A DNA stretch of 10,679 nucleotides from a virus (taxonomy: Duplodnaviria > Heunggongvirae > Uroviricota > Caudoviricetes), in the IMG/VR virus record IMGVR_UViG_2609459795_000010, positions 1 to 10,679 of that record, one strand, 5' to 3'. Shown one piece after another: positions 305-10,679 of this stretch. A model generated the notes under the pieces. The model made no database searches and was not told the DNA's origin. It saw only the letters and a program-made list of their open reading frames with translations. Position 1 is the first letter of the stretch; each line of letters begins with the position of its first letter. Position numbers and translations under genes: made by a program.

Positions 305-751
305 CTAAATCAGTAAGTTGGCAGCATTACCCAAAGATATACCTATAACAAAATGAGCGATAATTAACTCATAGTCATCTATTCTATATTGTTTAAGCTT
401 CAACATGCAGGTATCAATCATACGACCTTCATCGTTGCCACACTGACGGCGTAATTTCTTACCATGAGGTACTACATCTTTATATTTATCAGCTACTTGC
501 TGCCAGTTGATAGAACTATTTCCAGCTGCAGCCCAAGCCCCCCAACTGTCCAAAATATCATATATATTAGCATTGCTATCCACCTTTTTTTTATATTCTT
601 TTTTGAGGCGACCAAGAAGCATCCTGGCCATCATCATTATTTCTATACTTTTAACTGATTCATAAGCATCAGGAGAAATAATTCTCCCATCACTTAATGC
701 CCTATCACTAAGATTTGCTATTTCCAATAATCGTTCTTTAGTTATTTCCAT
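305..751 (-). CDS. AT-rich hypothetical accessory protein, 3' end interrupted by IS1 (last 8 codons GNAANLLI and the stop are read from the IS1 inverted repeat)
   Basis: ATG at 751..749 preceded by GGAG (761..758) with 6-nt spacing. The open frame runs into the IS1 end at 331. Markedly AT-rich (by eye about 35% GC) compared with neighbours. No family recognised. Confidence 0.6.
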   Translation of the reverse strand: MEITKERLLEIANLSDRALSDGRIISPDAYESVKSIEIMMMARMLLGRLKKEYKKKVDSNANIYDILDSWGAWAAAGNSSINWQQVADKYKDVVPHGKKLRRQCGNDEGRMIDTCMLKLKQYRIDDYELIIAHFVIGISLGNAANLLI

Positions 752-909
752 TATTATCTCCACCGCCCTTTCGGGCGGCCTCCTGATGTTCTGAGGGTGC
801 GGAAATCCCTCCGGTTAAGGATTAAATTTTTAACAGTGCTGAATTTAATTATTCAGATTTGGATTATGCTTTCTCTTTCACTTCACCAAGTTCCGATTGT
901 TAATTTGGC

Positions 910-3505: not shown

Positions 3506-3804
3506 GAATCAACTCCATCAGATAAGCATGCACTACAATCACCTTCAGCATGAACAACATGTGTTTGCCCCAAACGAATGCCGCTCGCATACTCAGGCCA
3601 AATAAGCTCCCAATCATGGGGTCGTAGCTCCGCCCTACTTACTTGGCCTTCCGTCGCAGATTCGATCATAAGGGCGCGGGTTGGAGATATAGCTGTTCGT
3701 CCAGACGCCATTTGCGATAAGTAAGATGGCGATACACCAAGTCTGGCCGCGAATTTCTTAGCATCACCAACCCTTAATGATTTAATAAACTCTTTTAATG
3801 TCAT
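3502..3804 (-). CDS. ydaS: Cro-like HTH regulator, YdaS family, 100 aa
   Basis: HTH segment AARLGVSPSYLSQMASGRTAISPTRALMIE. AGGAAGG Shine-Dalgarno before ATG at 3804..3802. Divergent from the repressor gene. Confidence 0.82.
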   Translation of the reverse strand: MTLKEFIKSLRVGDAKKFAARLGVSPSYLSQMASGRTAISPTRALMIESATEGQVSRAELRPHDWELIWPEYASGIRLGQTHVVHAEGDCSACLSDGVDS

Positions 3805-4274
3805 ACCTTCCTCGGTTTAGTGTTTTTTTTGCGAGTTTAGTGTTTAATAAACCATTAAGTCAAGTATTTGCTTGTTTAGTGATTACTAAAGATAATTACC
3901 ACATGCAAAAAAAAGAAATTCGCCGTTTACGTCTCAAGGAGTGGTTTAAAGATAAAACTCTGCCACCCAAAGAGAAGAGCTACCTATCTCAATTAATGAG
4001 TGGGAGAGCCTCGTTTGGAGAAAAGGCTGCCAGAAGAATAGAGCAAACATACGGGATGCCGGAAGGGTATCTGGATGCGGAATACGCAGAACAACCGGGG
4101 GTTTCTCCACCACATACAGGGTTAACGTCTAATCAACTGGAATTATTGCAGATTTTTTCAGCCTTCCCTGAGGATGAGCAACGCCAGATAATCAGCGAGT
4201 TAAAGCAGAAAAAAGAATCAATGGAAGATCTCATAGCGAGATGGATTGCGGCGCAAAAATGCCGCCGCGCCTGA
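3798..4274 (+). CDS. racR: Prophage repressor, RacR-like HTH_XRE protein (158 aa from ATG 3798; ATG at 3903 giving 123 aa is the more plausible start)
   Basis: HTH motif SYLSQLMSGRASFGEKAARRIEQTYG. Divergent from the Cro-like gene across an operator-repeat region. The 158-aa length matches my recollection of K-12 RacR. The first 35 codons overlap the operator region and the ydaS start. Confidence 0.82.
   Translation: MSYLPRFSVFFASLVFNKPLSQVFACLVITKDNYHMQKKEIRRLRLKEWFKDKTLPPKEKSYLSQLMSGRASFGEKAARRIEQTYGMPEGYLDAEYAEQPGVSPPHTGLTSNQLELLQIFSAFPEDEQRQIISELKQKKESMEDLIARWIAAQKCRRA
3805..3902. promoter_or_regulatory. Divergent operator/promoter region (OR analogue): three GTTTAGTG repeats plus candidate divergent promoters
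   Basis: GTTTAGTG at 3815-3822, 3835-3842 and 3874-3881. Minus-strand TTGACT (3863..3858) with TAAACT (3839..3834) at 18-nt spacing, reading toward ydaS. Plus-strand GATAAT (3891-3896) 6 nt before the ATG at 3903, suggesting a leaderless repressor mRNA. Confidence 0.5.
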
Positions 4275-4294
4275 GTTATAAAACCGGAGGAAAC

Positions 4295-4486
4295 ATGAAT
4301 AGAGCCCTTTCACCAATGGTTTCTGAATTTGAAACCATTGAACAAGAAAACAGTTACAACGAATGGCTGCGTGCGAAAGTAGCAACGAGCCTTGCAGATC
4401 CGCGCCCAGCAATTCCCCATGACGAAGTTGAGCGCAGAATGGCAGAACGCTTTGCTAAGATGCGCAAGGAACGGAGCAAGCAGTAA
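4295..4486 (+). CDS. Putative type II antitoxin (ParD/RelB-like), 63 aa
   Basis: GGAGG Shine-Dalgarno 4 nt upstream of the ATG. Stop TAA is 1 nt before the ParE-like start. Small acidic protein with a basic C-terminus. Assignment rests mainly on its position upstream of the toxin. Confidence 0.6.
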   Translation: MNRALSPMVSEFETIEQENSYNEWLRAKVATSLADPRPAIPHDEVERRMAERFAKMRKERSKQ

Positions 4487-4487
4487 A

Positions 4488-4766
4488 ATGTTACCCGTGT
4501 TATGGCTTGAAAGCGCAGATACCGACCTAGATGATATAACTAGTTATATTGCTCGTTTCGACATAGATGCGGCTGAACGCTTATGGCAGCGATTAAGGGG
4601 TTGTGTGCTGCCGTTATCCGAACATCCGTATTTATACCCACCAAGCGACAGAGTACCTGGCTTGCGTGAGATTGTAGCCCACCCTAACTATATAATTCTA
4701 TACCGCGTAACAACATCAAGCGTTGAAGTAGTAAACGTGATCCACGCAAGACGCCAGTTTCCCTAA
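4488..4766 (+). CDS. ParE/RelE-superfamily toxin, 92 aa
   Basis: C-terminal signature PGLREIVAHPNYIILYRVTTSSVEVVNVIHARRQFP fits the ParE consensus (GLRE...Y.I.YRV....V.I.RV.H.R). Start is tightly coupled to the upstream small ORF. Confidence 0.78.
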   Translation: MLPVLWLESADTDLDDITSYIARFDIDAAERLWQRLRGCVLPLSEHPYLYPPSDRVPGLREIVAHPNYIILYRVTTSSVEVVNVIHARRQFP

Positions 4767-5063: not shown

Positions 5064-5282
5064 ATGCAGAAACGAGAACCCGTCATCATCGCGCCAGACT
5101 ATACCGATGATGAACTTTATGAGTGGATGCGCCAGAAAATTAATGCAGCGCAGGATCTGAAATGGGCCAATGAAGCCAAGGCTAAGCAGGCTGAAAATCT
5201 GTCCGCTCTGGAGCAGGATATCACCAGGCTGGAAAAAGCAGCGGCATTAAGCATTGCCAGAATGATTACATGCCCGCGTTAA
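5064..5282 (+). CDS. Hypothetical small protein, 72 aa, predicted helical; first ORF after the OL-like promoter
   Basis: GAGGA Shine-Dalgarno 6 nt upstream of the ATG; double stop TAA TAG. No family recognised; not arginine-rich, so not N-like. Confidence 0.65.
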   Translation: MQKREPVIIAPDYTDDELYEWMRQKINAAQDLKWANEAKAKQAENLSALEQDITRLEKAAALSIARMITCPR

Positions 5283-5304
5283 TAGCTAACCAACGAGGCT
5301 AATA

Positions 5305-5634
5305 ATGGAATTTAAAGATTTACCAATGCAATTCCAGGAAATGGCAGCGAATATAGTTCGTTCCCAACTGGCGACTCTTGACCTGAGTACCGTAGAAAAA
5401 GAAACCATCGATACTATATCCGGTAACGTGCGTCGTGCCTTTATCGGTCTGTACGAAGAGAAGCAGCTCTCTGATAACCTGGATTTACATGAAAAATACT
5501 TCCTGGATCTAATGGACATCATTGATAAGGGGTTTGGCTTGTTAATGAAAAAGAAAGGGATTCGAATAGAACCCCTTGAAAATTACCTTGCAACAAAAAG
5601 CATTAATTCTTTTGATTCAAAACAAGAGAATTAA
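5305..5634 (+). CDS. Hypothetical protein, 109 aa
   Basis: GAGG Shine-Dalgarno 6 nt upstream of the ATG, 22 bp after the previous stop. AT-rich. No family recognised. Confidence 0.65.
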   Translation: MEFKDLPMQFQEMAANIVRSQLATLDLSTVEKETIDTISGNVRRAFIGLYEEKQLSDNLDLHEKYFLDLMDIIDKGFGLLMKKKGIRIEPLENYLATKSINSFDSKQEN

Positions 5635-5877
5635 TTACAGATTTAACATGCTCTTTCTCATGATTGAAGCTCTCATGATTGAAAGTGCCTGGTTGAAGCG
5701 AGTCGATATAATCAACAAGACTCTGTCGTACGACTTCATTTTTATCCATTACAGATGCAAGAAATGAAATTGCTAAAAGAGTTATATCACTACGCGCCGC
5801 AGCATGCTGCAATGCTTTATCAAAATTATTAATCTGGCGTATCAGGGAGTTAATGATTTCATCATTTTCAGTCGACA
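5603..5877 (-). CDS. Hypothetical protein, 91 aa, convergent with and overlapping the 3' end of the 109-aa ORF by 32 bp
   Basis: ATG at 5877..5875 with strong GGAGGG Shine-Dalgarno upstream on the minus strand. Very AT-rich. The ORF track extends it to 202 aa, but that N-terminal extension is GC-rich, Arg-rich and looks non-coding. Confidence 0.6.
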
Positions 5878-6432
5878 TTTCACCCTCCTGAGGGTTGGTG
5901 ATTAAGGAGTTCTCCACGGGTGAGGTGGAGTGCGTGCGCCGGACACGGGTGAGCATCCGGCACTGACAGTTTACTGAAAGGATATTTCCCTGAAAAGTCA
6001 GACCATAACGCGAAAGCGCACGGCGAGGTAGCTGGTTCATAGATAGCCTGTCGTTAAATTTTCGTCGACCGTGCGCTTCCGGTTGTGGCACTCCGCGAAA
6101 TGGCGCGGCGGTAAGTATGGCGGGGGTATTCCTTCCCCGTTGAGGACACCGGGTTGTCAGGTTGACCATACGCTTAAGTGACAACCCCGCTGCAACGCCC
6201 TCTGTTATCAATTTTCTGGTGACGTTTGGCGGTATCAGTTTTACTCCGTGACTGGTCTGCCGCCCTTTTTAAAGTGAGTTTTGTGATGCGGTGAATGCGG
6301 CTGAGCGCACGCGGAACAGTTAAAACCAAAAACAGTGTTATGGGTGGGTTCTCTGTATCCGGCGTTAATTGTTAACTGGTTAACGTCACCTGGAGGCACC
6401 AGGCACCGCATCAACAAAGTTCATTTGTAAAA
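5878..6432. other. 555-bp GC-rich, hairpin-dense non-coding tract between divergent genes; candidate structured RNA, long leader or gene remnant
   Basis: No convincing ORF on either strand. Hairpins read directly include GGTTGTCA...TGACAACC (8-bp stem), CCGCG-AAATGG-CGCGG and CCGGA...TCCGG. Composition contrasts with the AT-rich flanks. Confidence 0.3.
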
Positions 6433-6444
6433 ATGGAGATAATT

Positions 6445-6666
6445 ATGATTGCTCATCACTTCGGAACTGATGAGATTCCTCGTCAGTGCGTGACTCCCGG
6501 TGATTATGTTATTCATAAAGGAAGAACATATATTGCTTCGGTAAACAACATTAAAAAACAACGGCTCTATATTCGTGATTTTTCCACACAACACTGTATT
6601 AAGGAAACCATGATTAAAGTCTTCCTTGGTCGTGATGGTTTACCTGTAAAAGCAGAGTCATGGTGA
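6445..6666 (+). CDS. Small prophage protein, 73 aa (77 aa if started at ATG 6433); possibly YdaC-like, unverified
   Basis: GGAG Shine-Dalgarno 6 nt before the ATG at 6445. Location two genes upstream of xis/int resembles the Rac ydaC position. The family name is recollection only. Confidence 0.65.
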
Positions 6667-6789
6667 GCAGTAATAAAATAACTGCCACAATACGACATTC
6701 AGCTTAATGAATACATCAGATTTGATTCTTATATGCCAGCAATGGCAGGGATTTGTTCATCCTTAAATCTGTCATGAGGTTAAAACAAA

Positions 6790-7710
6790 ATGAGTAAAGT
6801 CTTTATTTGCGCCGCCATTCCGGACGAACAGGCAATAAAGGAAGAAGGTGCAGTTGCTGTAGCCACTGCCATTGAAGCCGGTGACGAACGCCGCGCCCGT
6901 GCCAAATTTACCTGGCAATTCCTGGAGCAATATCCGGCTGCTCAGGACTGCGCTTATAAATTTCTTGTCTGCGAGGATAAACCCGGTATACCCCGCCCTG
7001 CCCTCGATTCCTGGGATGCTGAATATATGCGGGAAAACCGCTGGGATGAGGAGTCAGCTTCCTTTGTCCCGGTTGAGACTGAATCAAATCCGATGAACGT
7101 CACTTTTGACAAGCTGGCCCCTGAAGTACAGAACGCTGTCATGGTTAAGTTCGACACATGTGAAAACATCACCGTTGATATGGTGATTAGTGCACAGGAA
7201 CTGTTGCAGGAAGACATGGCAACATTCGACGGACATATCGTTGAAGCGTTGATGAAAATGCCAGAAGTTAACGCCATGTATCCGGAACTTAAGTTGCATG
7301 CCATCGGGTGGGTTAAGCATAAATGTAAGCCTGGAGCTAAATGGCCCGAAATTCAGGCAGAGATGCGCATCTGGAAAAAACGTCGCGAAGGTGAACGCAA
7401 GGGAACCGGAAAATACACGTCTGTTGTTGATCTCGCCCGCGCCAGAGCCAATCAACAGAACACTGAAAGTTCAACAGGAAAAATCAGCCCGGTCATTGCT
7501 GCCACTCATCGCGAATACAAGCAGACATGGAAAACACTGGATGACGAACTGGCCTACGCTCTCTGGCCTGGTGATGTGGATGCCGGAAACATTGACGGCA
7601 GCATTCATCGCTGGGCAAAAAATGAAGTTATCGACAACGACCGCGAAGACTGGAAGCGTATCTCGGCATCAATGCGCAAACAGCCTGATGCCCTTCGCTA
7701 CGACCGCTAG
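6790..7710 (+). CDS. Hypothetical protein, 306 aa, acidic; ends at a TAG that is in frame with the next ORF
   Basis: ATG with GAGG about 10 nt upstream. Long open frame. No family recognised. Confidence 0.72.
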   Translation: MSKVFICAAIPDEQAIKEEGAVAVATAIEAGDERRARAKFTWQFLEQYPAAQDCAYKFLVCEDKPGIPRPALDSWDAEYMRENRWDEESASFVPVETESNPMNVTFDKLAPEVQNAVMVKFDTCENITVDMVISAQELLQEDMATFDGHIVEALMKMPEVNAMYPELKLHAIGWVKHKCKPGAKWPEIQAEMRIWKKRREGERKGTGKYTSVVDLARARANQQNTESSTGKISPVIAATHREYKQTWKTLDDELAYALWPGDVDAGNIDGSIHRWAKNEVIDNDREDWKRISASMRKQPDALRYDR

Positions 7711-7761
7711 ACTATTTTTGGCCTTGTCCGTGAACGTCCGATCGACATTCACAAAGACCCT

Positions 7762-9261
7762 GTGGCACTGAACAAATACATTACTGAATACCTGACTACA
7801 AAGGGCGTGTTTGAAGATGAAGGAACAAATCAGAGCGCAACTGATACTCTCTCGTCGCCAGTACCAGAAACTGATGCAGTGGAAACGGCAATTCCGGACA
7901 ACGAAAAAACCGAATGCAAAGTGGAAGTCGAACCATCTGTAGAGCGTGAGGGGCCGTTCTACTTCCTCTTCACCGACAAGGATGGCGAAAAATACGGTCG
8001 CGCAAACAAACTTTCTGGTCTGGATAAGGCGCTGGCTGCCGGGGCTACTGAAATCACGAAAGAAGAATATTTCGCCCGCAAAAACAGTACATACTCAGGT
8101 TCACAACAAAATACTGGTGCATCTGACACGACCGCACAGCCAGAACCGGTAAAAGTTACCGCTGACGAAGTAAACAAAATTATGCAGGCAGCCAATATCA
8201 GCCAGCCTGACGCCGATAAGTTGCTTGCTGCATCACGTGGTGAATTTATTGAAGGGATTAGCGACCCGAATGATCCGAAATGGGTTAAGGGGATCCAGAC
8301 CCGCGATACTGTGAACCAGAACCAGCAAGAAACGGAACAGAACGACCAGAAAGCGGAACAAAACAGCCCAAATACGCAACAAAACGAGCCAGAAACGAAA
8401 CAACCTGAACCAGTAGTGCAACAGGAACCGGAAAAAATCTGCACCGCCTGCGGTCAGAGCGGTGGTGGCAACTGCCCTGATTGTGGTGCGGTGATGGGCG
8501 ACGCAACATACCAGGAAACATTCGATGACAAGAACCAGGTTGAAGTTCAGGAAGACGATTCGGAGAAAATGGAAGGCGCTGAACACCCACACAAGGAGAA
8601 TGCTGGCAGCGCTCAGGATCACGCCAGCGATAGTGAAACTGGCGAGACGGCAGATCCCTTAATTACGGTGAACGGTCATCGCGTTATCACATCCACCAGC
8701 AGGACGTGTGACCATCTAATGATCGACCTTGAAACCATGGGAAAAAATCCTGATGCCCCGATTATCTCAATAGGTGCAATATTTTTCGATCCGCAAACCG
8801 GAGATATGGGACCGGAATTTAGTAAGACTATCGATCTGGAAACTGCTGGCGGAGTCATTGATCGTGACACCATTAAATGGTGGCTTAAGCAATCACGCGA
8901 GGCGCAATCTGCCATTATGACCGATGAAATCCCGTTAGATGATGCACTGTTACAATTGCGGGAATTTATCGACGAAAACTCCGGTGAATTTTTTGTTCAG
9001 GTCTGGGGAAATGGAGCCAACTTCGACAACACGATTTTGCGCCGTTCATACGAGCGGCAGGGGATCCCCTACCCGTGGCGTTACTACAACGATCGCGATG
9101 TACGCACAATCGTTGAGCTGGGGAAAGCCATAGACTTCGATGCCAGAACTGCTATCCCATTCGAAGGTGAGCGCCATAATGCACTTGATGACGCTCGTTA
9201 CCAGGCAAAATACGTTTCAGCTATCTGGCAAAAACTGATCCCGAGTCAGGCTGATTTTTAA
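7762..9261 (+). CDS. Multidomain protein, 499 aa: acidic low-complexity N-terminal region, CxxC-x8-CxxC zinc ribbon, C-terminal DEDDh 3'-5' exonuclease domain (Rv2179c/RNase T-like)
   Basis: Exo motifs seen in the translation: IDLETMG (Exo I), [12 protein letters not shown] (Exo II), [10 protein letters not shown] (Exo III). Zinc ribbon [16 protein letters not shown]. Start is GTG with no clear SD. An internal start at the ATG near 8719 would give a domain-only exonuclease. Confidence 0.75.
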
Positions 9262-9272
9262 TGTTCAACCGT

Positions 9273-9304
9273 CGCCAGTTGTCGTTGGTATTCTGCAACT
9301 GGCG
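9273..9304 (+). promoter_or_regulatory. Perfect 9-bp inverted repeat CGCCAGTTG / CAACTGGCG with a 14-nt loop, between the exonuclease gene and xis
   Basis: Read directly from the sequence. Followed by TGTT and then the xis SD (GGAG at 9311-9314). Could be a terminator, attenuator or processing site. Confidence 0.35.
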
Positions 9305-9322
9305 TGTTCCGGAGTGATAGCC

Positions 9323-9592
9323 ATGAGCGAACAGTACCTGATAACGCTTGACGAGTGGAAACCAAAACGGTTCAGTCTCCCAATAACAAACACTACCCTG
9401 GTGAAATACGGAAAACTAGGATACATCGTTCCAAGACCACAAAAAATTCGTGGGCGTTGGCTGATAGATCGCCGGGCAGTATTTGTTGGACCTGGTGAAA
9501 CGGGAATTGCGCCGGAAATTCATACTGGCGATGATGATGCACTGAAGGAGATTTTAACTCATGTCACCGAGGCCACGAAAAAACAGCACTGA
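9323..9592 (+). CDS. xis: Excisionase (lambda Xis-like), 89 aa
   Basis: N-terminus MSEQYLITLDEW resembles lambda Xis MYLTLQEW. GGAG Shine-Dalgarno 8 nt upstream. The 3' end overlaps the int start by 32 bp, as in lambda. Confidence 0.75.
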   Translation: MSEQYLITLDEWKPKRFSLPITNTTLVKYGKLGYIVPRPQKIRGRWLIDRRAVFVGPGETGIAPEIHTGDDDALKEILTHVTEATKKQH

Positions 9593-10679
9593 CGTAACCG
9601 GTCTTTACGAAAAGTTTGATCGCAGAACTGGCAGGGTTTACTACCAGTATAAAAACCCTGTGACTGGAAAATTTCACGGTCTCGGAACAGACAAAGGCAA
9701 AGCAGAAAAAATCGCTTCCACAGCCAATCAGCGAATAGCTGCAGCAGAAGCTGAATATTTCATGCGCAAAATTGATGAAAGTCCGTCAGCAACAAAACGT
9801 CGGGGCATCAGATTAAAGGCATGGGTTGATCGATATCTGAAAATACAGGACGCGCGACTGAAAAATGGAGATATTGCAGCTACAACTCACAAAGAAAAAA
9901 CTCGAATGGCTGCATACCTGGTTTCCCGTCTGGGAAACCACCCATTGAAAGAACTGGAAGTAAGAGACTTTGCATTAATACTGGATGAGTGGCTGGATAA
10001 AGACATGGTCAGCACAGCGAGAGTAAATCGTGGATTATGGGTTGATATTTATAAAGAAGCACAGCATGCAGGGGAAGTTCCTCCTGGATGGAATCCTCCG
10101 GAGGCTACCCGTAAACCGATCCCTAAAGTAACCAGAGCCAGGCTCACCATGGAAGACTGGCAAAAAATTTACAATGCAACGCCTGAAAAACACTTTATCC
10201 GTAACGCAATGCTTCTTGCGATTGTTACTGGTCAGCGCCGTGATGACATTTGCCACATGCGTTTTTCAGATGTGTGGAACGAACACTTGCATATCACCCA
10301 GGGAAAAACCGGAATGCGTCTGGCGTTACCGCTTACACTACGCTGTGATGCCATTGGGATAACGTTAAAAGAAGTTATTGATGGGTGCCGAGACAGAATA
10401 TTAAGTCCATATCTAATCCATAGTCGGCACCAGAAACAACCGAAGCCGATGAGTAAAGACAACCTGAGCGACTACTTTGCCAAAGCACGGGATCTGGCTG
10501 GGATAATTCCACCAGCAGGAAAAACTCCGCCAACATTTCATGAACAACGCTCTCTATCAGAACGGTTGTACCGTGCACAGGGTATCGATACAAAAACATT
10601 ACTAGGACATAAAGTCCAGGCAACCACCGATCGCTATAACGATACTCGAGGTCAGGAATGGGTTAAGTTGGTTATTTGA
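9561..10679 (+). CDS. int: Lambda-family tyrosine integrase, 372 aa, complete (TGA at window end)
   Basis: AAGGAG Shine-Dalgarno. Catalytic signatures TGQRRDDI (Arg), HEQRSLSERL (His-x-x-Arg), LLGHK and TDRYND (Tyr). C-terminus GQEWVKLVI parallels lambda Int GREWDKIEIK. Confidence 0.92.
   Translation: MSPRPRKNSTDVTGLYEKFDRRTGRVYYQYKNPVTGKFHGLGTDKGKAEKIASTANQRIAAAEAEYFMRKIDESPSATKRRGIRLKAWVDRYLKIQDARLKNGDIAATTHKEKTRMAAYLVSRLGNHPLKELEVRDFALILDEWLDKDMVSTARVNRGLWVDIYKEAQHAGEVPPGWNPPEATRKPIPKVTRARLTMEDWQKIYNATPEKHFIRNAMLLAIVTGQRRDDICHMRFSDVWNEHLHITQGKTGMRLALPLTLRCDAIGITLKEVIDGCRDRILSPYLIHSRHQKQPKPMSKDNLSDYFAKARDLAGIIPPAGKTPPTFHEQRSLSERLYRAQGIDTKTLLGHKVQATTDRYNDTRGQEWVKLVI

Follow-up and report, generated by a model that had tools for sequence, protein, structure and literature searches.

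A probable recent amber mutation interrupts an 823-codon YdfE-family exonuclease gene in the decaying prophage of one E. coli strain

The two open reading frames (ORFs) found between positions 6790 and 9261 of the window, the 10,679-nucleotide stretch of DNA analysed here, are very probably the two parts of a single 823-codon gene of a decaying prophage, interrupted by a recent nonsense mutation (Q307amber) that has been seen in one E. coli strain only. By descent the region is a member of the YdfE family, in the form of a nonsense allele or pseudogene: it lies in the early-left operon between kil/dicB and xis-int, as do its relatives, and it carries a TAG at codon 307 where the family has an uninterrupted reading frame. 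It is an ordinary nonsense allele.

An earlier note, made from the sequence alone, had described ORFs 6790-7710 and 7762-9261 as lying in the same frame, and their starts are indeed 972 nt, or 324 codons, apart (7762-6790 = 972 = 324x3). Translation of 6790-9261 likewise bore out that the TAG at 7708-7710 is the sole internal stop across 824 codons, that 17 sense codons (7711-7761) separate it from the GTG at 7762, and that the first in-frame ATG after the stop, at 8182, comes 158 codons after the TAG and 140 codons after that GTG. The GTG was said to be without a Shine-Dalgarno (SD) sequence, and the predicted pairing with the anti-SD upstream of it is just -0.9 kcal/mol, compared with -6.3 kcal/mol at ATG 6790 and -8.8 kcal/mol at the start of int. 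In random sequence, a stop-free in-frame continuation of 516 codons has a probability of (61/64)^516, roughly 1e-11. Among the explanations offered in the note was a nonsense mutation that divided one ancestral gene of about 820 aa, and this is the one that the homologues favour, as they encode a fused 823-aa protein with CAG at the position of the TAG. In the alignment of homologous prophage regions, the codon at this position is a sense codon (CAG, Gln) within a single gene. On two E. coli chromosomes and in phage mEp460_ev081 (together L001-L003) the homologous region carries one annotated 2472-nt coding sequence (CDS) with identical start and stop. The features of the locus are collected in Table 1.

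Table 1. Features of the interrupted gene and its neighbours (positions in the window)
Feature	Position	Strand	Evidence
Disrupted YdfE-family prophage 3'-5' exonuclease gene, 823 codons plus stop	6790..9261	+	Homologous 2472-nt CDS; PHROG 2082
Truncated frame, predicted to be translated, 306 aa, YdfE_N and YdfE_C region, without nuclease domain (GenBank KDW96659.1)	6790..7710	+	SD-like GAGG upstream of ATG
Premature amber codon Q307*	7708..7710	+	CAG in L001-L003 and L007; TAG 33-mer with 0 matches
Remaining 516 codons, intact, no frameshift or further stop, no credible start	7711..9261	+	
499-aa GTG ORF, probable gene-calling artefact	7762..9261	+	No SD; no + strand promoter-like site
Rv2179c-like DEDDh 3'-5' exonuclease domain	8713..9228	+	PF16473; PDB 8kel match
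Second private substitution C761Y (TGC to TAC), within nuclease domain	9070..9072	+	33-mer counts
Possible weak internal start ATG (speculative)	8569..8571	+	dG -5.4 for AGGAAGACGAUUCGGAG
CxxC-N8-CxxC motif, possible zinc ribbon, in the linker/nuclease-domain interval	8440..8487	+	Read from translation; conserved in homologues
kil (KilR), directly upstream, same operon	6445..6666	+	PF27398 on L004 product; annotated kil in L001 and L002
Excisionase, directly downstream	9323..9592	+	
Integrase	9561..10679 (window end)	+	

Profile comparisons join the two ORFs in the same way. The 823 positions of PHROG 2082 are tiled by both of them, positions 1-306 by the first ORF (778 bits) and 308-823 by the downstream frame (1050 bits), and the RecE profile PRK09709 runs colinearly across the stop (positions 260-332, then 335-603). 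The earlier note had also allowed for two genes that share a frame by chance. Two genuinely separate genes, the second beginning at GTG 7762, would agree with the gene callers of the source assembly, which annotate two genes, and a shared frame would arise by chance in 1 of 3 cases. However, there is next to no chance that this reading is correct, since the two ORFs together match a single profile in full apart from one position. Moreover, no homologue has a stop at codon 307, and in none does the downstream part form a gene with a start of its own. Between the TAG and the GTG, the 17 codons are conserved as coding sequence, with a peptide identical in the homologues, and the GTG has no SD. 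Translational coupling finds no support either, as this GTG, with its -0.9 kcal/mol, is the only start-like codon within 50 codons. The exact 499-aa product is found on this contig only, and its 90% cluster holds 823-aa proteins. A scan of 6200-9700 gave no + strand promoter-like site and terminator-like sites only at the frequency expected by chance, thereby lending no support to separate transcription of the downstream part.

The C-terminal part of the gene encodes an Rv2179c-like nuclease domain (227.3 bits against a gathering cut-off of 27 for PF16473), with the DEDDh motifs MIDLET (8719-8736), GANFD (within 9004-9030) and HNALDD (9175-9192) readable in the translation. PDB entry 8kel, named 'Exodeoxyribonuclease', aligns to this domain with E=6e-7, including the DxE motif. 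On the 306-aa product there are precomputed matches to YdfE_N and YdfE_C (PF27430 and PF27432); these N-terminal residues matched no family in a local Pfam copy that predates the two models and had no match in a PDB sequence search. For the nearest read-through relative (P0001), AlphaFold2 with an alignment of 20 sequences gave a mean pLDDT of 44, and near residue 307 a value of about 40, too low to tell whether the stop lies within a folded domain. Many E. coli genomes carry several copies of this gene family, in up to 10 places each. In many phage records this gene is labelled 'exodeoxyribonuclease VIII'. A literature search found no published work linking ydfE to a prophage exonuclease.

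The interrupting codon differs from its ancestral form by a single C-to-T transition, CAG (Gln) to TAG, the mutated base being T7708, which corresponds to position 7744 of JNPX01000055.1. Codon 307 is CAG in all homologous regions read (L001-L003 and L007), and Q307 is kept in every protein read that extends beyond residue 306, including that of E. albertii (71% identity). With the ancestral C at its centre, a 33-mer occurs at 3,643 sites across 2,369 complete E. coli genomes; the corresponding 33-mer with the T allele has no match among 5,426 complete E. coli genomes, and exact-pattern scans for the TAG allele found none in GTDB species representatives or in JGI metagenomes. With an 81-mer as query, the best matches all stood at 98.8%, equivalent to a single mismatch. 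In a set of about 15 billion proteins, the exact 306-aa product comes from a single contig, JNPX01000055 of E. coli 2-210-07_S3_C2. The nearest relative, L007 (BDRD01000059.1), has one mismatch across the 1,600 nt upstream of the gene and is identical over gene nucleotides 1-1226 except for the base at codon 307. The part after the TAG departs from L001 and L002 in only 4 codons and has no indels. Given that the downstream part has acquired no further stop or frameshift, the mutation is likely very recent. A Dcm (CCWGG) deamination hotspot was considered as the origin of the C-to-T change and rejected, the ancestral context being GCCAGA. The gene has a second private change, at window position 9071 (position 9107 of JNPX01000055.1): residue 761 is Cys in all homologues read, and the TGC 33-mer occurs at 6,505 places in 3,664 genomes while the TAC 33-mer of the window has no matches.

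An allele this rare could be an error of base calling or consensus building in the draft assembly, with the strain carrying an intact 823-codon gene. The T is found on one draft contig alone, the closest relative differs over 1.2 kb only at the base that creates the TAG, and short-read assembly is complicated by a family with so many copies. Such an error is nonetheless improbable. Collapse of paralogues cannot yield a base that is absent from thousands of copies, and consensus substitution errors are rare in Illumina-era assemblies. A look-up further reported the contig in three samples of unspecified nature. The second private G:C-to-A:T change in the gene (C761Y) and the IS1 in Q fit real decay.

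A genuine TAG may still be read through, as the earlier note had considered. If amber readthrough reached a useful level, by a suppressor tRNA or through a context-dependent basal rate, a functional full-length exonuclease would be made. The ancestral residue is Gln, which is inserted both by supE-type suppression and by basal UAG readthrough in suppressor-free E. coli, and the frame downstream of the TAG is still fully open. An open frame, however, is equally expected for a very recent mutation, and basal readthrough amounts to about a percent or less. Amber suppressors are typical of laboratory strains and would not be expected in a clinical stool isolate. The stop is conserved in no relative (0 TAG versus 3,643 CAG places in complete E. 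coli genomes), which argues against a programmed recoding site. Overall, functional readthrough is very unlikely here.

Alternatively, the nuclease domain could be made alone by reinitiation or internal initiation, leaving two functional cistrons. A possible start is ATG 8569, the only in-frame ATG between the stop and the nuclease domain with some SD-like sequence; it precedes the Rv2179c-like domain by 144 nt and has SD-like AGGA/GGAG upstream (dG -5.4). PHROG families that cover only the C-terminal part also exist (phrog_14078, 264 positions; phrog_20376, 530 positions), so that such ORFs have been called in other phage genomes. Against this, ATG 8569 sits 860 nt past the stop, a distance too great for reinitiation to be coupled to termination. 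Only 3 nt separate the GGAG from the ATG, and the same sequence is present in the intact homologues, where it is simply coding. The C-terminal PHROG families are best explained by gene calls on other broken copies, and phrog_20376 corresponds to a start at M294, upstream of this TAG. In addition, the nuclease domain carries the private C761Y. Separate production of the domain is therefore unlikely.

Under the preferred reading, that of one gene with a recent nonsense mutation, the locus appears to be the 823-aa exonuclease gene of lambdoid, Rac/Qin-like prophages, which lies between kil (or dicB-ydfD) and xis-int, and that exonuclease gene would be the intact counterpart of the K-12 pseudogene ydfE. 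In E. coli 2-210-07_S3_C2, the C-to-T change at 7708 would have turned the Gln codon into an amber codon. Ribosomes starting at ATG 6790 would terminate there via RF1 and release a 306-aa N-terminal fragment without the linker, the CxxC motif and the C-terminal DEDDh domain. Because there is no ATG or SD near the stop, the remaining 516 codons would be essentially untranslated and the GTG ORF would be an artefact. Little or no nuclease function would remain. Readthrough would involve a small fraction of ribosomes at most, and its product would be wild type because basal UAG readthrough inserts Gln. The 1.5 kb of untranslated mRNA may also reduce transcription of xis-int through Rho-dependent polarity. 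Past the stop, the base composition reveals no marked rut-like tract rich in C and poor in G; therefore Rho polarity is a general expectation and not a prediction supported by the sequence. From standard E. coli translation we infer that ribosomes terminate at the TAG, that they do not reinitiate and that xis-int may be subject to polarity. The mutation sits in a prophage already in decay, whose Q antiterminator gene is truncated by IS1.

The gene is broken in other E. coli prophages as well, and Q307* is a further example of its frequent breakage. Lesions of independent origin that leave at least about 205 to 410 residues of the N-terminus in place are found in K-12 (IS2 at aa 255), in BDRD01000059 (IS1 at codon ~410), in P0034 and P0067 (frameshifts in both) and in the Q307* allele. 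It is possible, though improbable, that selection has repeatedly removed the C-terminal nuclease domain while the N-terminal YdfE module was kept, and that the amber allele is one such case and not simply neutral decay. If so, the nuclease may be costly to the host, or the N-terminal fragment may have a domesticated function of its own. A further possibility, likewise improbable, is that the premature stop lowers xis-int expression by polarity and thereby helps to lock the prophage in place. Loss of the nuclease under selection would, if real, be mildly interesting for prophage domestication. For annotation, the 306-aa and 499-aa entries of this assembly should become a single pseudogene or nonsense allele of the prophage exonuclease, and the 499-aa GTG ORF should not be carried forward as a protein. 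Likewise, K-12 "YdfE" and the Pfam models YdfE_N and YdfE_C describe what remains of the N-terminus of a much larger nuclease. Beyond annotation, the significance of the allele is small.

The closest known counterparts of the window gene are intact 823-aa prophage exonucleases such as those of E. coli 700481 (WP_074530352.1) and phage mEp460_ev081 (VUF53467.1), which are the same gene with the same start and stop, at 95.6-98.9% DNA identity. Their loci share its neighbours, with kil upstream and xis-int downstream. Compared with them, the window gene has TAG for CAG at codon 307 and Tyr for Cys at 761, and is otherwise structurally the same. The K-12 gene ydfE (b1577, Qin cryptic prophage) is an orthologue at the same operon position, after dicF-dicB-ydfD, with ~94% DNA identity over the first 765 nt, and it has been counted as a pseudogene within the dicB operon (bioRxiv 10.1101/2024.09.21.614188). 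It is likewise a truncated N-terminal remnant, and its ORF is likewise 306 aa long. That the shared length marks the same allele was considered and rejected: K-12 diverges at aa 256, at its IS2E junction, and the last 51 aa of K-12 YdfE are unrelated to those of the 306-aa product. The equal length is therefore a coincidence. While K-12 ydfE has the IS2E junction at aa 255 and the remainder deleted, the window gene has a point mutation and retains the downstream sequence.

RecE (exodeoxyribonuclease VIII) of the Rac prophage occupies the same map position in a lambdoid prophage, and its middle region (profile positions 260-603) is homologous to and colinear with the window gene; recE of Rac-SA53 has ~85% DNA identity to it over query nt 1453-1834. 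Membership of the RecE family itself (NCBIfam PRK09709 / NF007259) was rejected, as the score is 245.4 bits against an equivalog cut-off of 1269 and the C-terminal nuclease domain of RecE (profile ~604-877) is unmatched, with the PF16473 Rv2179c-like domain in its place. A relative in a Stenotrophomonas phage (28% identity) is a single 710-aa gene at the same map position. The 227-aa protein of PDB 8kel/8ken, which we take to be probably phage T4 DexA, is a stand-alone nuclease domain without the ~640-aa N-terminal extension of the window gene. Finally, Q307* shares its mutation type, CAG to TAG, with the classical amber mutants, but it is a spontaneous allele in a natural isolate, a strain for which no suppressor is known. 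At an amber codon derived from CAG, a Gln-inserting suppressor (supE/glnV) would restore the exact wild-type protein.

The segment from 6790 to 9261 is one gene, in which a single private C-to-T change made an amber codon. The two ORFs described in the earlier note lie in the same frame as they are offset by 972 nt, or 324 codons, and the TAG at 7708-7710 is the lone internal stop on translation of the 824 codons. By megablast, 3,533 complete E. coli genomes out of 5,426 contain a match over at least 80% of the segment, with identities up to 98.9%, as do 30 phage records; matches of any length are found in 4,800 of the genomes. Among the full-length matches listed, nearly all carry one 'exonuclease' CDS, the exceptions being copies interrupted by IS elements. 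All three homologous regions read (E. coli 700481, E. coli ST866 and phage mEp460_ev081) have one CDS of 2472 nt here, whose start and stop coincide with those of 6790-9261 and which is placed between kil (or dicB-ydfD) and xis-int.

Aligned with these prophage regions, the TAG corresponds to a sense codon of a fused gene: all three have CAG as codon 307, where the window carries T instead of C at base 7708. Gln307 is present in every protein read that reaches past residue 306, inside a conserved 22-residue block, and is kept even in a sequence from E. albertii that is 71% identical. Similarly, the first ORF covers positions 1-306 of PHROG 2082 ('exonuclease', 823 positions) and the downstream frame (7711-9261) covers 308-823, leaving only position 307 uncovered. 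The proposal of an ancestral single gene split by a nonsense mutation is thus borne out. That two true genes share a frame by chance, also raised earlier, is refuted given the uninterrupted Gln307 and the single CDS in homologues, down to a Stenotrophomonas phage gene of 710 aa at the same map position with 28% identity.

The earlier description of the downstream ORF was accurate. Its GTG follows the TAG after 17 sense codons and has no Shine-Dalgarno sequence, as pairing of the 17 nt upstream with the 16S anti-SD is worth only -0.9 kcal/mol, whereas the ATG at 6790 reaches -6.3 and the integrase start -8.8. The earliest in-frame ATG past the TAG, at 8182, is 140 codons beyond the GTG, and anti-SD pairing of the downstream starts gave no credible restart signal near the amber codon. 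Translation from the ATG at 6790 would stop at the UAG to give a 306-aa fragment lacking the nuclease domain, the other 516 codons would be essentially untranslated, and the 499-aa GTG ORF is probably a gene-caller artefact. An ATG at 8569, 144 nt ahead of the nuclease domain, is preceded by weakly SD-like sequence (-5.4 kcal/mol) and, speculatively, could yield a little stand-alone nuclease domain. A functional C-terminal product of this kind, though compatible with the nonsense mutation, is unsupported and unlikely.

In suppressor-free E. coli, Gln is the residue put in by basal UAG readthrough (Nilsson and Ryden-Aulin 2003, cited in PMC8954436). The product of such rare readthrough would therefore be wild type except for C761Y, and its level is likely low. 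Useful readthrough dependent on a suppressor, another of the earlier suggestions, would restore the whole protein but is very improbable in a natural isolate. As a general expectation, the long untranslated stretch could lower transcription into xis-int via Rho. By base composition the stretch has no obvious C-rich, G-poor tract, and a terminator scan of 6200-9700 found no terminator excess, so a Rho effect stays at the level of that expectation.

The amber allele is exceedingly rare. An 81-nt query around the stop matched complete E. coli genomes at 5,472 places, with the top matches all at 98.8%, or one mismatch. For a cleaner test, the megablast query was cut to 33 nt with base 7708 at its centre, so that every 28-nt seed necessarily contains that base: with the T of the window there was no match in complete E. 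coli genomes, and with C there were 3,643 places in 2,369 genomes. Exact-pattern scans of GTDB species representatives and JGI metagenome contigs did not find the TAG allele. Among about 15 billion proteins, the exact 306-aa protein (KDW96659.1) is on one contig only, JNPX01000055.1 of E. coli 2-210-07_S3_C2 (assembly GCA_000703945.1), bases 37-10715 of which are identical to the window. The only serious alternative is a consensus base error in this draft assembly, which is quite unlikely. In the nearest relative found (protein P0001 on BDRD01000059.1, region L007), gene nt 1-1226 match the window exactly save for the C/T at 7708, and the 1,600 nt upstream contain one mismatch; that copy is itself interrupted, by IS1 around codon 410.

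Downstream of the TAG there is neither a frameshift nor a second stop, and four codons only differ from the closest complete-genome copies. One of them, C761Y, is also private, as the TAC 33-mer has 0 matches versus 6,505 places for TGC in complete E. coli genomes. Both changes are G:C-to-A:T transitions and, judged from sequence, both are outside Dcm CCWGG sites. Relative to L001, the closest complete-genome copy and one of the three single-CDS regions, 23 of 27 differences are within the first 968 nt of the gene (6790-7760 versus 7761-9261). In this 5' third the draft relative L007, unlike L001, is identical to the window, suggesting that recombination among prophages has made the gene mosaic. 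The feature is real: a prophage exonuclease gene that is well known and widely distributed has recently acquired a strain-specific nonsense mutation, Q307amber. The TAG is not a recoding site and the ORFs are not a gene pair.

The downstream frame matches PF16473 at 227 bits (cut-off 27) and its translation shows the DEDDh-type motifs MIDLET, GANFD and HNALDD. By sequence, the sole solved relative of the nuclease part is PDB 8kel, a 227-aa 'Exodeoxyribonuclease' (E=6e-7). Precomputed hits place the 306-aa N-terminal product in the recent Pfam families YdfE_N and YdfE_C; the N-terminal part had no match in the local Pfam copy or in PDB, and the 437 N-terminal residues modelled by AlphaFold2 reached a mean pLDDT of only 44, too low for use. 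A literature search on the function of this exonuclease protein found nothing. Within 8314-8487, DNA very rich in A and poor in T (50 A and 3 T in 8311-8410) encodes a Q/E/N-rich low-complexity linker. The linker is followed, just ahead of the nuclease domain, by a CxxC-N8-CxxC motif, possibly a zinc ribbon.

Features of the gene and its prophage surroundings
Feature	Position	Strand	Remarks
IS1 end	1 to about 331	-	InsA ORF 1-276
Truncated antiterminator Q gene	305-763	-	adjoins IS1 end
Prophage repressor gene	3798-4274		
PaaA2-type antitoxin / ParE-type toxin pair	4259-4766	+	between repressor gene and ydfC-like gene
ydfC-like gene	5064-5282		
DicF sRNA gene, full-length	6214-6265	+	Rfam RF00039, 74 bits
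kil (KilR)	6445-6666		occupies place of dicB and ydfD of K-12
First ORF	6790-7710	+	ATG start, 306 aa
Downstream ORF	7762-9261	+	GTG start, 499 aa
Rv2179c-like 3'-5' exonuclease domain	8713-9228	+	PF16473; residues 335-506 of downstream frame
C761Y	9070-9072	+	TGC to TAC, exonuclease domain

This early-left operon gene belongs to a lambdoid, Qin/Rac-like prophage integrated beside potC; the repressor, toxin-antitoxin pair, ydfC-like genes, DicF and kil lie upstream of it, and xis and int downstream. Past the window end, in the source contig (L004 10882-12719), potC-potD come immediately after the integrase, which places the prophage at the potC attachment site. The prophage of AST262, the most similar one over the rest of the window, has a different integrase and adjoins yccA. 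The DicF flank (6131-6425) shares 97.6% identity with K-12 Qin. The contig end falls within the IS1, which truncates Q, replacing the last 35 aa of the 174-aa protein of relatives with 9 IS1-derived residues. This insertion is a second inactivating lesion, and the prophage carrying Q307amber is already degraded.

Q307amber has a mundane explanation and is an event of a known kind. The gene was broken independently in many strains (L007 9230-9376; megablast matches H6, H105 and H113; proteins P0034, P0067, P0004 and P0009), elsewhere by insertion of IS1 (L007), ISVsa5, IS679 or IS600, by frameshifts near residues 207 and 259 (P0034, P0067), or by internal deletions fusing the N-terminal part to the nuclease domain (P0004, P0009). 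In K-12, the dicB operon includes the pseudogene ydfE (bioRxiv 10.1101/2024.09.21.614188). This pseudogene (b1577 of Qin; 5079-5999 of the MG1655 region L005) is the same gene, cut at residue 255 by an IS2E junction, and its ORF reads on into IS sequence. It too is exactly 306 aa, a coincidence as its last 51 residues are unrelated. Since K-12 ydfE is a truncated remnant, Pfam YdfE_N and YdfE_C are named after the leftover of an 823-aa nuclease.

The RecE profile (NCBIfam PRK09709) is colinear across the stop of the window gene, at positions 260-332 and then 335-603, but its score of 245 bits is far below the cut-off of 1269, and the match stops short of the RecE nuclease domain. The colinear middle region is window 7500-8670, about residues 237-626, and recE of Rac-SA53 has ~85% DNA identity to gene nt 1453-1834. 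By these comparisons the product is a mosaic, its middle region shared with RecE and its nuclease different (DEDDh Rv2179c-like, not RecE-type); 'exodeoxyribonuclease VIII', as many phage records label it, is therefore a loose and misleading name.
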